Shown one piece after another: positions 24,850-36,565 of a DNA stretch of 64,000 nt (the first letter of the stretch is position 1; each line of letters opens with the position of its first letter). The notes under the pieces are model-generated. The model worked only from the letters and a program-made list of their open reading frames with translations. It searched no databases and was not told the origin of the DNA. A program made the translations under genes and the position numbers. Source of the stretch: Acutalibacteraceae bacterium (GTDB lineage Bacteria; Bacillota; Clostridia; Oscillospirales; Acutalibacteraceae); assembly GCA_045636705.1 (NCBI GenBank), contig JAZTYA010000033.1, positions 677-64,676 on the forward strand, read 5' to 3'.

Positions 24850-25440
24850 ATGAAGCAGGATGAACTCCGTCAAAAACTGATTGACGGCACGATCCATGTT
24901 ATTGCAAAAGAGGGACTTGATAAGGCTTCAACAAAACAAATCGGACTCGCAACCTCTATTAACGAAGCCTATATTTATCGTTGTTTTAAGGATAAGGAGG
25001 ATATGTTCGCAAAAGCATTCGCTTCACTTGATGAAGAACTGTTAGAAAAGACAATGCAGCATGTTTCGGTAATGTATATTAAAGAAATGAAGTACGAACT
25101 GCGTTGTTGGACATTCTTTATATCCATTTGGGAATTTATGGTTGAAAGGCGGGATAATTGCCTTGCCTTTATTCAATATTACTATTCTCCGTATTTTTCA
25201 AAGTATTCGGCAGAAGAACATAAGGTAAGATTTACTCCGCTTGTAGATAAGTTCAAGGATGCTTTTCGTGAAGAATCAAATGTATGGTTAATACTTAACC
25301 ACATATTAAATGTAATGCTTGATTTCGCTGTAAAAGTGCACAACGGTCAGATGCCCAAAGGAGATAGCTATGCCGAGCATATTTTCAGAGTAATCTACGC
25401 GTCTGTAAAACAGTATTTCAAAAAAGAGGAGAGGGATTAA
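24850..25440 (+). CDS. TetR/AcrR-family transcriptional regulator
   Basis: N-terminal TetR HTH (IAKEGLDKASTKQIGLATSINEAYIYRCFKDKEDMF) with an all-helical C-terminal domain. Confidence 0.85.
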   Translation: MKQDELRQKLIDGTIHVIAKEGLDKASTKQIGLATSINEAYIYRCFKDKEDMFAKAFASLDEELLEKTMQHVSVMYIKEMKYELRCWTFFISIWEFMVERRDNCLAFIQYYYSPYFSKYSAEEHKVRFTPLVDKFKDAFREESNVWLILNHILNVMLDFAVKVHNGQMPKGDSYAEHIFRVIYASVKQYFKKEERD

Positions 25441-25445
25441 CAATT

Positions 25446-26174
25446 ATGAAGAAAGCACTAAAAATAATAAAAACCACAGTGGTTTGGATGATGATACTGT
25501 TGGCTGTATCAATGATGATATTCACGGTTGTTTCTGTTACTACCTTCAATCGAAATGACCGCAGCCTTTTTGGCTTTAAGATGTACATAGTAAATTCTGA
25601 TTCTATGGCAGCCACTGACTTTAATGCCGGCTCTTTGATTCTTGTAAAAGAGGTTGAGCCTTCAACACTCAAGGAAGGTGACATTATTACCTTTATGTCA
25701 CAAGATACAAACAGCTTTGGAGAAACTATAACCCATAAGATAAGGACGATAACAACCGATGCCGAAGGAAATCCTGGTTTTATCACTTACGGTACAACAA
25801 CCGACACAAATGATGAAACGATAGTTACTTATCCCTATGTGCTTGGTAAGTATCAAGGTCATATTGCCGGACTTGGTACCTTCTTTAACTTCTTGAAGAC
25901 AACCCCAGGATATTTTGTCTGCATTTTCATTCCCTTTATGCTCATTATCCTTTATGAAGGGGTTAAGTTCTTTAACCTTTTCCGTCGATATAAACAGGAG
26001 CAAATGGAAGAATTGCAGGCTGAACGCAAAAAAATCGAAGAAGAAAAGGCAGAAACTGCCAGGATTTTTGAAGAACTACGTGTTTTGAAAGCGCAGTTAG
26101 AAAATCAAGAAACAGAAACGGTAGAAGCTAAGGCCGTATTGAACGCAGAGGAGAAATCCGAAGAAGATAGCTAA
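25446..26174 (+). CDS. ER/archaeal-type signal peptidase I, divergent SipW-like paralog with C-terminal TM plus charged coiled-coil tail
   Basis: N-terminal TM, NSDSM (catalytic Ser box), ITHKI (His box), a second TM (YFVCIFIPFMLIILY), then QEQMEELQAERKKIEEEKAE... The KGD box is replaced by YGTTTDTND. Confidence 0.75.
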   Translation: MKKALKIIKTTVVWMMILLAVSMMIFTVVSVTTFNRNDRSLFGFKMYIVNSDSMAATDFNAGSLILVKEVEPSTLKEGDIITFMSQDTNSFGETITHKIRTITTDAEGNPGFITYGTTTDTNDETIVTYPYVLGKYQGHIAGLGTFFNFLKTTPGYFVCIFIPFMLIILYEGVKFFNLFRRYKQEQMEELQAERKKIEEEKAETARIFEELRVLKAQLENQETETVEAKAVLNAEEKSEEDS

Positions 26175-26312
26175 TACCACGTCCCCGTAAGAAACGAGTT
26201 GATCCCCAAATGTTAAAAATTAATACAGGTGTTCTTGTAGGTGCAAATTTAGTTTATATTGTTTGTACCGACATAACAGACAAGCAACCCCACAATCAAG
26301 AAGGAAAAAACA

Positions 26313-26540
26313 ATGCCAGCAACTAATCCAGATACCGTGCTTTATCTACTCCTTGGTATTGTAGTCATTTTCCTAATGTTTTTATTGTTGATTGGGCTAG
26401 CAGACTTTTTCAACAATTTTTCTCGCGAACTCAAACGTATAAACTGCGAAATAGATCGCACTCAAGGTTCCAAGCGACGTTATTGGAAACGGAGAAAAAG
26501 GAGATTGTGGCTTTCCTTAATACCATTTATAAAGTATTAA
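26313..26540 (+). CDS. Hypothetical small membrane protein with a highly basic tail
   Basis: 75 aa: one TM (VLYLLLGIVVIFLMFLLLIGL), then KRRYWKRRKRRLW. AAGGA RBS 8 nt upstream. No recognisable family. Confidence 0.35.
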   Translation: MPATNPDTVLYLLLGIVVIFLMFLLLIGLADFFNNFSRELKRINCEIDRTQGSKRRYWKRRKRRLWLSLIPFIKY

Positions 26541-26642
26541 CCTAGCTTACATACGGAGCATATCCTCTGATCTTGTAAGCATGGTAATCGAAATATGGTT
26601 TATTTTGTCTTGTCTTCACCTGTTTTGGTTACCATGTGCCGT

Positions 26643-34521: not shown

Positions 34522-35187
34522 ATGAAGAAGATTATAGTTCTCTTGTTTACATTATTACTCTTCTTTGCTAATACAATAACGAGTTTTGCGGCAGAGGGAA
34601 AGGTAACCTATACCGGAAATGCAGGCAAATTTGTCTTTAAACCCGGTAGTGATTACTCATTAACCGACCTGTTTTCCAATTTTAAGGACGTTATGCCCGG
34701 TGACACCCTAACACAACAAATCACCGTTAAAAATAAGGCGGATAATAAGGTTAAGGTTAAAATTTATATGCGTTCTCTGGGTGCACACTTGGATTCGGTT
34801 GACTTCTTGTCTAAACTAGGACTCAAGGTGCAAAAGAGTGAAAAAAACGAAATGGCATATATGTTCGATGCCGCAGCCGACGAAACCGCAGGACTTACCG
34901 ATTGGGTATGCCTTGGCACACTCTATTCGGGCGGCAAGGTTAATTTAGATGTAATTTTAGAGGTTCCCGTAGAACTCGATAATATGTTTCAAAGTAAAAT
35001 CGGCTATCTCGATTGGGAATTTATGATAGAAGAGTTTCCCGTAGAACCCGATGACCCAAAACTACCGCAGACAGGTGACAATGCAAAAAAAGAAGTTTGG
35101 ATTGCTCTGATGGTCTGCTCATTATGTATAATGTTTATTCTTTTGATATGGCGTAAAAAGGATAAGGAAGATAAAGAACACGCCTAA
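34522..35187 (+). CDS. LPXTG cell-wall-anchored protein with a TasA-like PGD/beta-sandwich motif
   Basis: Sec-type signal (TSFA/AEG), MPGDTLTQQITVKNKADNKVKVKIYMR, then LPQTGDN plus a TM plus RKKDKEDKEHA. Its ATG directly follows the stop of subunit 5. Confidence 0.8.
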   Translation: MKKIIVLLFTLLLFFANTITSFAAEGKVTYTGNAGKFVFKPGSDYSLTDLFSNFKDVMPGDTLTQQITVKNKADNKVKVKIYMRSLGAHLDSVDFLSKLGLKVQKSEKNEMAYMFDAAADETAGLTDWVCLGTLYSGGKVNLDVILEVPVELDNMFQSKIGYLDWEFMIEEFPVEPDDPKLPQTGDNAKKEVWIALMVCSLCIMFILLIWRKKDKEDKEHA

Positions 35188-35213
35188 AAGCACTAAACAA
35201 GGAGGAATAAGGC

Positions 35214-35867
35214 GTGAAGCCCCAAGCAAAGAAAACAACAATCAAAAAAATAGCCTTAATTTTCAGCCTATGCCTACTTGTCATTTGGAGCTTACTTGGT
35301 ACAGGAGCCTCGTTGGCGTGGTTTGGTGACTCATCACCTGAAATCAACAACATCTTCCATTTTGCAGATTTTAAGCTTACGGTATCGCACCGTCTTACCG
35401 ATGGAAAGTGGGAAGAAGTCGATAGTGGCACAGAAATATTTGATAAACAAGCACTGTATGAACCGGGCTATGTTCAGGTTGTTTACCTAAAGGTGGAAAA
35501 TAAGGGAGATACTCCGTTTAATTTTTATACAGCGGTTAATGTAAATGGTTGCTCTCAAGCAACAAATGTCTTTGGTCAGACCTTTCTTTTGCAGGATTAT
35601 TTAAAGTTCGGTCTTAAAGTAGCAGATACCGAGGAAGCAATGAAAAACAGTATTTCTGACCGCAAAGTGGCAGAAGAAGTTGCCAATATGCCTTTACATA
35701 ATTACTACGAAACCGATACGGCAAAACTGGATCCTAATGCGACTAAATATATCGCGCTAATTGTCCGTATGCCCGAACAAGTTAACAATATTGCAAACTA
35801 TCGTGGCAGCACCGTTCCAAAGGTTGAACTTGGAATTACAGTAAAAGCAGATCAAATTATAGACTAA
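35214..35867 (+). CDS. SipW-class secreted protein, TasA-like (subunit 6)
   Basis: GTG start after AAGGAGGA. Signal KKIALIFSLCLLVIWSLLGTGASLA/WFGDSS. YEPGYVQVVYLKVENKGDTPFNF. C-terminal ITVKADQ. Confidence 0.7.
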   Translation: MKPQAKKTTIKKIALIFSLCLLVIWSLLGTGASLAWFGDSSPEINNIFHFADFKLTVSHRLTDGKWEEVDSGTEIFDKQALYEPGYVQVVYLKVENKGDTPFNFYTAVNVNGCSQATNVFGQTFLLQDYLKFGLKVADTEEAMKNSISDRKVAEEVANMPLHNYYETDTAKLDPNATKYIALIVRMPEQVNNIANYRGSTVPKVELGITVKADQIID

Positions 35868-35905
35868 TCAATCAAAAGCAAATTTCAAAAGGGAGGTGAC
35901 ATTAA

Positions 35906-36565
35906 GTGAGAAAATTTTATAACGAATATTTCTATGTTCCCAAGCATACAAAAATACGCGAAAAAGTAATGCTTACGCGGGTTATAACGTCAGTAGCAGT
36001 TGTGGTTTTTAGCCTGCTTGCGATGAGCTTTAGTGCTTACGCTTATTTTTCTCACGATGTAACCTCGGGATTTAATACGATTAAAGCGGCAACCTTTCAA
36101 ACTAAAATAGAGGTCCAAATTATTGATGAAGAGGGAGCAGTTGCAGAAAAAATAACCCCTATAACCAGCAACTATAAAATATTTAAAGTTAGCGGATTGA
36201 AGGCAGGGAAAACCTATACGGTAAGGATTACGCCTACAAAGCAAAGCTCAGCAACTACAGGGTTTGTAACGGTCACAGCAACAGGCTCTGATAAAACATA
36301 CCACACACAACAGCTTGGCATTGATGAAAATGTCAAGGGTGGAAAAACCAAGGAAATGATTTTTAAACTTTTGGTAACTGATACCACCGACATTGTGTTC
36401 GAGGCGCATTGGGGCACCTCTGCCTATTATCCTAAATCTAAGGATAGCAAAAGAAAAGAAGAACTATACATTACACAAAACGAAGAAATAAAAATAATTA
36501 TAAACGGCATTACAGAACATACTGAAGAAAATGTTACCGACACAGAAAACACACCTGAATATTAG
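35906..36565 (+). CDS. SipW-class signal-peptide protein, divergent (subunit 7)
   Basis: GTG start after GGGAGGTG. A 21-aa cytoplasmic extension, then VITSVAVVVFSLLAMSFSAYA/YFSHDVTSGFNTIKAATFQTKIEV. The remainder has no recognisable family. Confidence 0.6.
   Translation: MRKFYNEYFYVPKHTKIREKVMLTRVITSVAVVVFSLLAMSFSAYAYFSHDVTSGFNTIKAATFQTKIEVQIIDEEGAVAEKITPITSNYKIFKVSGLKAGKTYTVRITPTKQSSATTGFVTVTATGSDKTYHTQQLGIDENVKGGKTKEMIFKLLVTDTTDIVFEAHWGTSAYYPKSKDSKRKEELYITQNEEIKIIINGITEHTEENVTDTENTPEY

Follow-up and report, generated by a model that had tools for sequence, protein, structure and literature searches.

The 64,000-nucleotide stretch of DNA analyzed here (the 64-kb window) comes from contig JAZTYA010000033.1 of an Acutalibacteraceae bacterium (assembly GCA_045636705.1). 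Between positions 24850 and 36565 it carries a cassette of genes for two SipW-type signal peptidases, seven exported proteins with SipW-type signals and a candidate wall anchor. The cassette is real and strongly conserved in related bacteria, and judging from its sequences, it most likely specifies a SipW-dependent multisubunit surface fiber with variable adhesin-like domains. Twelve open reading frames (ORFs) lie on the plus strand of this interval, in the order TetR, SipA, TM75, T1, SipB, S1, T2, T3, S2, anchor, S3, and S4. They encode a TetR-family regulator, the two peptidases, a small membrane protein, the seven proteins with SipW-type signals, and one protein that combines an LPQTG sorting signal with a Sec signal. 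The genes are spaced by 0 to 138 nucleotides (nt), with the exception of a 363-nt gap 5' of T1, and strong ribosome-binding sites precede most of them. An initial annotation of the window had described twelve same-strand ORFs with short gaps, and we located all of them.

Conservation of the cassette in gut Oscillospirales

We compared the cassette with 81 related loci, 80 of which came from a genome scan seeded with an 11-sequence alignment of anchor homologs and 1 from a contig look-up. All 81 lie in uncultured Oscillospirales metagenome-assembled genomes (MAGs; Acutalibacteraceae, Faecousia, Oscillospiraceae, and "Eubacteriales") from the guts or feces of ruminants or other animals. Judging from similarity to these relatives, the organism of the window would be a member of this group too. 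The gene order is constant and can be written as (KTR)-TetR-SipA-(TM75)-T(0-1)-SipB-S1-T(1-3)-S2-anchor-S3-S4, on one strand. Counting only loci with enough flanking sequence, S2 adjoins the anchor gene in 71 of 71 loci, S3 is present in 70 of 70 and S4 in 65 of 70, and at least one T gene (39/39), SipB (36/39), and SipA (31/39) are found upstream. Where a peptidase gene is missing, this is mostly because large T genes displace it beyond the 10-kb flank. A synteny survey, which the initial annotation had proposed as a check, thus found the genes to be co-conserved as a unit.

The surroundings of the cassette differ between species. Of 60 other loci, not one has rplU 3' of S4, and one relative (L001) has integrases at this place. 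In 12 related loci, a homolog of the Cys_rich_KTR small zinc-ribbon gene (24429 to 24659, plus strand; PF14205 28.7 bits, cut-off 25.5) lies 5' of the TetR gene. Together, the unconserved flanks and these KTR genes indicate a cassette of about 12 to 13 genes that starts upstream of 24850. The locus had initially been drawn from the TetR gene to the rplU promoter, and the first of these limits has to be moved, as the conserved unit already starts at the KTR gene. Three MAGs carry two cassettes each (L002/L048, L029/L052, and L044/L057), so a single genome can hold the system in duplicate.

Both peptidases exceed the cut-off (51.85 bits) of TIGR02228, the archaeal/endoplasmic reticulum (ER)-type signal peptidase I family, SipA (25446 to 26174, plus strand) with 68.5 bits and SipB (28594 to 29217, plus strand) with 101.3 bits. 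The SDSM, THKI, and Asp motifs of SipA are kept in 36 orthologs, and the SGSMEP, THRV, and KGDAN motifs of SipB are kept in 45. By score and by these catalytic motifs, we assign both to the archaeal/ER-type (SipW-type) signal peptidases I, in agreement with the initial annotation. The two enzymes are 28% identical to each other, and SipA has a long, charged, coiled-coil-like C-terminal tail. Against the Bacillus SipW equivalog model NF046067, SipA scores 82.3 bits and SipB 90.0 bits, both far below the cut-off of 190, which makes them SipW-type enzymes rather than SipW orthologs.

The seven proteins with SipW-type signals share a basic n-region, a hydrophobic core, and a small-x-Ala motif followed by two aromatic residues, and this pattern, which had been pointed out at the outset, is present in all seven. 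The SipW-cognate signal peptide model TIGR04088 (cut-off 19 bits), suggested as a check on the seven ORFs, recovers four of them, with T1 at 29.7, T2 at 26.7, S1 at 25.4, and T3 at 22.5 bits; S2 falls below the cut-off with 14.7 bits, and S3 and S4 gave no match in this search. The motif A-[WY]-[FY] is invariant in the family alignments of the T N-modules, of S1/S2, and of S4, which together cover all seven proteins.

Subunit classes and the candidate wall anchor

T1 (26925 to 28589), T2 (30088 to 32262), and T3 (32394 to 33833), all on the plus strand, each combine a TasA-like N-module with a C-terminal payload. The true start of T1 is likely 26925, which is preceded by a GGAGA ribosome-binding site, rather than 26904, and ribosome-binding sites together with database orthologs likewise point to 32394 rather than 32355 for T3 and to 33949 rather than 33904 for S2. 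A 60-amino-acid (aa) Cys-rich ORF overlaps the start of T1 (26756 to 26938) and is probably not a gene; it has no homolog in the related loci, and we dropped it as a cassette component. The three N-modules are 35 to 39% identical to one another in pairwise BLAST comparisons, with T2 at 38 to 39% to T1 and T3. Against the Pfam profile PF12389 (Peptidase_M73/TasA/camelysin; gathering cut-off, 22.5 bits), T1 scores 29.9 bits and T3 scores 36.2 bits, the latter over profile positions 7 to 183 of 196, while T2 (17.6), S1 (16.6), and S2 (15.9) remain under the cut-off, and the search gave no match to S3, S4, or the anchor. T2 and S3 are counted in the TasA/camelysin family because they are homologous to T1 and T3.

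We grouped the subunits by pairwise BLAST and by profile-profile comparison of families built from the 81 related loci. S3 (35214 to 35867, plus strand) matches the T N-module over its full length (hhalign probability, 99.9%; E = 8e-34) and T3 by BLAST (E = 1e-11). By this comparison, the N-modules of T1 to T3 and S3 form class I, with S3 as a payload-free version of the T N-module. S1 (29301 to 29993) and S2 (33949 to 34521), both on the plus strand, are short BsaA-like subunits that match each other at 99.2% and are assigned to class II; the database orthologs of S2 are 187 to 190 aa long. The two classes are homologous, as S1 matches S3 at 96.7%. Six of the seven proteins with SipW-type signals are accordingly classed by sequence as TasA/BsaA-superfamily subunits in two classes. 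The seven had been grouped by their N termini within a TasA-type locus; an assignment to the TasA type stands for six, with T1 and T3 borne out directly by the Pfam profile that had been proposed for the purpose, but not for S4, which shares the signal and first strand and is otherwise unrelated. The three largest proteins had also been said to match Bacillus subtilis TasA motif for motif. Neither pairwise nor profile searches detect such a match to TasA chains of the PDB (phmmer searches with T2 and T3 returned no TasA chain at E ≤ 1), and the relation to TasA holds just at the level of the Pfam profile and the fold.

The payloads are the variable part of the cassette. Across the loci, there are 1 to 4 T genes per locus, encoding proteins of 396 to 1814 aa with BspA-type leucine-rich repeats (LRRs), beta-helix-like domains, or unassigned domains, and L001 has an LRR payload where the T protein of the window has a beta-helix. 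In the window, T1 has a beta-helix-like C-terminal part with weak DUF4957 and LIC10774-like matches, T2 has a large beta-helix/GLUG-like payload with weak Beta_helix and GLUG matches, and the fold of the T3 payload was not assigned. Some loci, namely, L020 (3880 to 9309), L011, L028, and L064, encode giant T subunits (about 1800 aa), and one giant T subunit has a weak match to a Hint module near its C terminus (E = 7e-5, below the cut-off). At the boundary between N-module and payload, a linker motif, ATQxTxExDSFxxxYD, is invariant in all T proteins (27507 to 27559, 30616 to 30668, and 32991 to 33043 in the window; invariant positions A201, Q203, E207, D209, S210, F211, Y215, and D216 of alignment A7). 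Its role might be that of a structural joint, of a metal site, or of a processing site.

We considered whether these proteins might simply be independent secreted proteins or enzymes (the "camelysin metalloprotease M73") that share an export signal and an N-terminal domain and do not co-assemble. The Pfam family name Peptidase_M73 would suit this explanation, and beta-helix-like folds such as those of the payloads are common in glycan-active enzymes. However, the HExxH motif is found in none of the twelve cassette proteins, on which ground we rejected the metalloprotease reading, and the peptidase assignment of the family is itself regarded as a misidentification (PMC11580942). In addition, the eight structural genes are strictly co-conserved in order, which argues for a complex. 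This is the weakest of the rival explanations, and we regard it as very improbable.

The class II subunits contain a candidate cross-link. In the S1/S2 orthologs, an Asn (36 of 37 sequences), a Glu (37/37), and a Lys (37/37) are conserved; the Asn is the tenth residue past the predicted cleavage site, the Glu lies in the next strand, and the Lys belongs to a PGDxxxK motif. In S2, these residues are N38, E51, and K74. Mutation of N35, E56, or K74 of BsaA abolishes oligomers (PMC11580942), and the S1/S2 residues are suggestive of this isopeptide triad. The T/S3 class lacks a conserved Lys at the corresponding position. S1 and its orthologs also have an Asp-rich insertion at about residues 60 to 85 (DANSDGIINELD; DADGDG in relatives) that resembles a calcium-binding loop and gives a weak Dockerin_1 match (E = 0.08). 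For AbpX, donor-strand assembly is reported to depend on calcium.

The anchor gene (34522 to 35187, plus strand) directly abuts the S2 stop codon with its start codon. Its product has an ordinary Sec signal with an SFA/AEG cleavage site and ends in LPQTG, a membrane helix at 190 to 220, and the basic tail RKKDKEDKEHA, as the initial annotation had in part described (a Sec signal and LPQTG in one ORF). This LPQTG is the sole sorting signal in the 64-kb window. The anchor family comprises 1354 clusters at 50% identity (E ≤ 1e-3), whose C-terminal signature consists of xPxTG[D/E], then a membrane helix, and then a K/R tail; among 67 members, 25 match LPXTG_anchor and 5 match srtB_target. PxTG[D/E] is kept, but the residue that opens the sorting motif varies widely, as in PPQTG, TPKTG, SPQTG, DPKTG, and others (P0241 to P0390; L001 8844 to 9518). 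By sequence, these motifs appear nearer to the clostridial SrtB-type (S/P)PxTG than to the canonical LPXTG.

Folds were predicted for the anchor and for S4 and compared with TasA. The AlphaFold2 model of the anchor, built with 67 diverse homologs, has a predicted local distance difference test (pLDDT) score of 84.9. Its best PDB match is the TasA fiber 8aur_A (E = 8.8e-5, probability 1.0), followed by the archaeal bundling pilin 7ueg_A (E = 1.1e-3) and the TasA monomer 5of2 (E = 1.9e-3), with Fim pilins among the weaker matches. Going by these best matches, the anchor is predicted to have a TasA-like fold, which fits a base subunit. When the mature N terminus of the anchor (AEGKVTYTGNAGKFVF) was aligned by eye with the T-protein stretch ...SVTSAGNKIQAGTL..., the anchor lacked the first ~5 residues (WFTDS), and on this alignment its donor strand looks truncated.

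The sortase that would act on this signal is not part of the conserved cassette. In one locus (L004), a sortase-like gene with a TLSTC motif lies about 0.8 kb 3' of S4 (13077 to 13943). The initial annotation had likened the organization of the locus to that of a sortase pilus. A sortase-assembled pilus operon has a pilus sortase and LPXTG pilins; here there is a single sorting signal and no sortase in either the cassette or the window, so the locus is not organized in that way. The rest of the proposed composition, namely, two peptidases, two sequence classes of subunits, three payload-bearing subunits, and a sortase-type wall anchor, is borne out, and so is the view of the locus as a SipW/TasA-superfamily system far more elaborate than tapA-sipW-tasA.

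S4 (35906 to 36565, plus strand), the exception among the seven exported proteins, resembles the T N-module over 29 columns only (hhalign), corresponding to the signal and first strand. Its AlphaFold2 model (pLDDT 80) has a membrane helix at 19 to 49, a disordered segment at 50 to 59, and a beta-sandwich of about 105 residues at 66 to 169, and the sandwich has no significant match among PDB folds (best E = 0.27). S4 is therefore modeled as an unrelated sandwich rather than a TasA-like subunit. An AYA/YF cleavage motif at the membrane helix is followed by a short strand segment, which is disordered in the monomer model, as has been reported for the BsaA donor strand. The cytoplasmic N-region of ~25 residues is unusually conserved (MRKLYNEFFYIPKxGKIREKVML). 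The C terminus of several S4 orthologs is a peptidoglycan-binding LysM domain, and that of others is a long tail rich in Thr, Glu, and Pro (P0476 to P0480, P0491, and P0493).

These features of the anchor and S4 bear on whether the fibers stay on the cell. The cassette might instead encode a released, TasA/BsaA-like biofilm matrix whose fibers are mainly shed, the LPXTG protein merely nucleating or transiently tethering them. BsaA polymers are indeed mostly extracellular, and in strain HN13, they are membrane attached, not wall attached; the LysM domains of some S4 orthologs would suggest noncovalent wall contact. Yet the anchor gene is found in every locus, right after S2, with a conserved sorting signal, and the cell surface is the most plausible place for adhesin-like payloads. 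We consider a predominantly shed matrix improbable.

A structured RNA motif and candidate regulatory genes

Three copies of an RNA element of about 75 nt lie in the locus, all on the plus strand: 5' of T1 (26639 to 26713; 79.0 bits with covariance model R1), in the T2/T3 gap, ending 33 nt 5' of the T3 start (32285 to 32361; 77.8 bits), and in the T3/S2 gap, ending 28 nt 5' of the S2 start (33846 to 33921; 70.6 bits). Each consists of two adjacent hairpins, P1 of about 9 bp (CCUAUCCCC...GGGGAUAGG) and P2 of about 20 bp (GGCAAUCAAAGG-inner stem-CCUUUUGAUUGCC). Over 60 instances, 97.1% of cells pair and 16 of 29 pairs show compensatory changes; none of 500 shuffles reached the observed values, and slid controls paired at 40 to 51%. 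In the window and the 81 loci, model R1 finds ~125 sense-strand matches of 50 to 88 bits. All of these sites lie 5' of S2, T, or SipB genes, most commonly in the T3/S2-type gap before S2, and none of the ~125 lies downstream of the anchor.

Because G-U pairs are frequent and sense scores are about twice the antisense scores, the motif is more readily understood as an RNA than as a DNA site, and a DNA operator is disfavored on the same grounds. In a search against Rfam 15, the motif had no match at E ≤ 1, and the only matches were three tRNAs, which lie outside the locus. In a 16-mer scan of an independent metagenome sample, the true motif was present in 4 of 80 matches, the rest being mostly chance, and all 4 sit in TasA-like cassettes; beyond L001 to L081, sites of the motif are in L106, L132, L133, and L159. 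Together with UUUUGAUU, which follows it, the inner part of P2 looks like an intrinsic terminator that has a complementary A-tract. A plain intrinsic terminator is insufficient to account for the element, since neither the A-tract nor the U-tract varies in sequence and another conserved hairpin lies ahead of them, and the invariant AUCAAA/UUUGAU together with the extra hairpin suggests specific recognition. The element may be a regulated attenuator or a processing or stability element that tunes the dosage of the downstream gene. As far as its sequence distribution indicates, it is an undescribed motif specific to these cassettes and a candidate cis-regulator of operon stoichiometry.

Two candidate regulators precede the peptidase genes. 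The TetR gene (24850 to 25440, plus strand; PF00440 30.6 bits) ends 5 nt 5' of SipA and is present, always in this position, in 17 of the 39 loci whose upstream sequence extends to 9 kb or more, and the Cys_rich_KTR protein possibly has a regulatory role. Upstream of the KTR gene, which is the first conserved gene of the cassette, a consensus scan found a sigma-70-like promoter, TTGACA-17-TATAAT (24258 to 24286, plus strand; 12/12), as a consensus match alone. TM75 (26313 to 26540, plus strand), a 75-aa single-pass membrane protein without a family match, has a conserved basic C terminus, RRRLWLSLIPF.KY, and 18 of 39 loci carry an ortholog of it in the gap that separates SipA from the first T gene.

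Elsewhere in the window, the cassette is surrounded by housekeeping genes. Just upstream lie a small XRE-type helix-turn-helix gene (23761 to 24033, minus strand), which has homologs in five related loci, and three tRNA genes (23311 to 23382 and 23408 to 23481, minus strand; 23645 to 23728, plus strand). Further upstream, a gene unrelated to the cassette (21578 to 23224, minus strand) encodes a predicted lipoprotein of 548 aa that carries about five Cys-rich repeats in tandem and has an HEILH motif in its C-terminal region and a weak match to an M6 metalloprotease domain.

Proposed assembly and comparison with known systems

Based on sequence and fold predictions, the cassette probably encodes a wall-anchored, donor-strand-assembled TasA-type fiber or display organelle. 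For its assembly, we infer a pathway of cleavage, strand insertion in a certain subunit order, isopeptide formation, and wall linkage. The seven proteins would be exported via Sec, with their uncleaved signal peptides tethering each of them. Either dedicated SipW-type peptidase could then cut past small-x-Ala, yielding an N-terminal strand that starts with two aromatic residues, and the freed strand would enter the open beta-sandwich of a neighboring subunit (donor-strand complementation), as in TasA/BsaA fibers. At an S1/S2 stalk, the junction might be locked by an isopeptide bond involving the Asn of the donor strand, Glu, and Lys, as proposed for BsaA. S3 and the N-modules of T1 to T3 would co-polymerize and display the beta-helix or LRR payloads of the T proteins, which are probable adhesins or glycan binders. 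The anchor may serve as an acceptor-type base subunit, whose xPxTG would be joined to peptidoglycan by a sortase encoded elsewhere in the genome. S4, with a donor-type N-terminal strand on an unrelated sandwich and LysM in some orthologs, may act as a TapA-like nucleator or as a wall-associated accessory protein. TetR and the KTR zinc-ribbon protein may regulate the cassette, and the intergenic RNA motif with its terminator-like hairpin probably sets the output of the downstream genes.

Several observations weigh against this interpretation. S2 scores 33.0 bits (E = 5e-8) and S1 21.1 bits against the BsaA family model TIGR04090, both below the cut-off of 60, and the Asn, Glu, and Lys of S1/S2 resemble the BsaA triad by order and spacing, not by alignment to BsaA. 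Family profiles of the T N-module, S1/S2, and the anchor, searched against the PDB with hmmsearch, returned no TasA chain at E ≤ 1. The template modeling (TM) scores of the anchor model with TasA and bundling-pilin structures are low (0.25 to 0.35; 0.33 for TasA), and the anchor matches the T N-module with only 61% probability by hhalign (E = 8e-5, 118 columns). Its sorting signal scores 15.8 bits with TIGR01167, just under the cut-off of 15.9. No ORF of the 64-kb window contains the sortase motif T[LIV]xTC, and a sortase-like gene flanks only 1 of the 81 loci (L004). Finally, the relatives are exclusively uncultured MAGs and hence come without a phenotype.

The same genes could also form a docking or display system without a long fiber, in which the anchor would be a socket, S1, S2, and S3 would be adaptors, and T strands would plug in to give short oligomers that hold exchangeable payloads at the wall, much as in cohesin-dockerin systems. 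From locus to locus, the scaffold genes stay the same but the payload genes differ in type and number, and the four short scaffold proteins are all different and single copy, with no obvious major pilin; moreover, Clostridium perfringens BsaB forms only dimers (PMC11580942). On the other hand, the characterized relatives TasA, BsaA, and the archaeal bundling pili make long fibers, and all subunits but the anchor combine a donor strand with a TasA-like body, which would permit open-ended polymerization. We therefore hold docking without a fiber to be unlikely, if the least so of the three alternatives to a wall-anchored TasA-type fiber or display organelle.

More speculatively, the cassette might represent a third class of Gram-positive pilus, widespread in gut Oscillospirales. 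Such a pilus would have a donor-strand stalk with spontaneous isopeptide locks, use sortase once, for a TasA-fold base, and provide a rack for rapidly exchanging payloads, with its stoichiometry set through an RNA element (a conserved hairpin and an invariant terminator-like stem) read by a cassette factor such as the KTR protein. We offer this broader proposal tentatively. TasA-type fibers are known mainly as the biofilm matrix of Bacillus and C. perfringens, and here they are apparently elaborated into a 12- to 13-gene pilus-like organelle with hypervariable subunits resembling adhesins and a covalent anchor to the wall. Dozens of uncultured Oscillospirales species from gut and rumen carry the system, at times twice per genome. 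If confirmed, it would explain how gut Clostridia, abundant yet poorly understood, attach themselves to hosts or substrates, and it would constitute a natural self-assembling protein-display scaffold.

The closest known system is the C. perfringens sipW-bsaABC(RSD) operon (PMC7395162, PMC11580942). Like the cassette, it combines a dedicated SipW-type peptidase with several TasA-like paralogs, including an LPXTG-bearing one as the proposed wall anchor: in most strains, an LPXTG-bearing BsaB-like gene lies beside srtB, and the authors speculate that its product anchors BsaA to peptidoglycan. An internal terminator with read-through sets the subunit ratios of the bsa operon, and the RNA motif described here would be comparable in purpose; the donor-strand exchange and Asn-Glu-Lys lock proposed for BsaA can likewise be set beside the invariant Asn/Glu/Lys of S1/S2. 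In contrast to the bsa operon, the cassette has two peptidases, eight structural genes that fall into three or four sequence classes, payload-bearing subunits, and TetR and KTR regulators in place of a two-component system. It has no von Willebrand factor A (vWA) protein (BsaC) and no adjacent sortase, and S2 stays below the cut-off of the BsaA family.

With B. subtilis tapA-sipW-tasA and Bacillus cereus sipW-tasA-calY (CapP), the cassette shares SipW-dependent export and a TasA-fold donor-strand subunit (PMC9674648, PMC10151520, PMC13082335). Bacillus TapA supplies the strand that starts the fiber, and S4 would be analogous in logic. Unlike the cassette, the Bacillus systems are sortase independent and consist of one or two subunits without payload domains. 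We found no TapA, CalY, or CapP homologs in the cassette, and its peptidases reach only 82 and 90 bits against the SipW equivalog cut-off of 190.

The AbpX/Tafi/AbpA loci also combine a signal peptidase with major and minor subunits, predicted tips, regulators, and, in bacteria, LPXTG or SLH anchors (bioRxiv 10.64898/2026.01.04.697558; PMC9245690). However, AbpX-linked peptidases have ten membrane helices and DUF5305 accessories, whereas the cassette enzymes are of the ordinary SipW type without DUF5305. The cassette subunits belong to the Peptidase_M73/BsaA-like branches, with payloads fused C-terminally to ordinary subunit modules. SpaA-type sortase pili and chaperone-usher pili have a similar functional layout of tip or decorating adhesins, a shaft, and a wall-fixing base, and chaperone-usher pili likewise use donor-strand exchange and several minor subunits. 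The cassette differs from both in having no pilus-specific sortase, pilin motif, E-box, usher, or chaperone, and unlike the subunits of SpaA-type pili, its subunits would join by strand insertion, possibly locked by isopeptide bonds, with sortase acting solely on the anchor.

The initial annotation knew of no characterized system with this composition. This holds for experimental work, and our literature search found no paper describing or testing this Oscillospirales cassette, but computational proposals exist. TasA/BsaA paralog operons with LPxTG proteins and sortases have been noted and heteropolymers suggested (PMC11580942, 2025), and the AbpX preprint reports clusters of the TasA superfamily that comprise major, minor, and tip subunits and, in bacteria, LPXTG or SLH anchors (bioRxiv 10.64898/2026.01.04.697558, 2026), for which AlphaFold 3 predicts co-assembly of the components by donor-strand complementation. 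The central idea of multiparalog, LPXTG-anchored TasA-family fibers is thus already in the literature, computationally. What the present cassette adds to these proposals is the pair of peptidases, the fixed order of three to four subunit classes, the TetR/KTR pair, the lack of a linked sortase, species-variable payloads fused to ordinary subunit modules, and the RNA motif.

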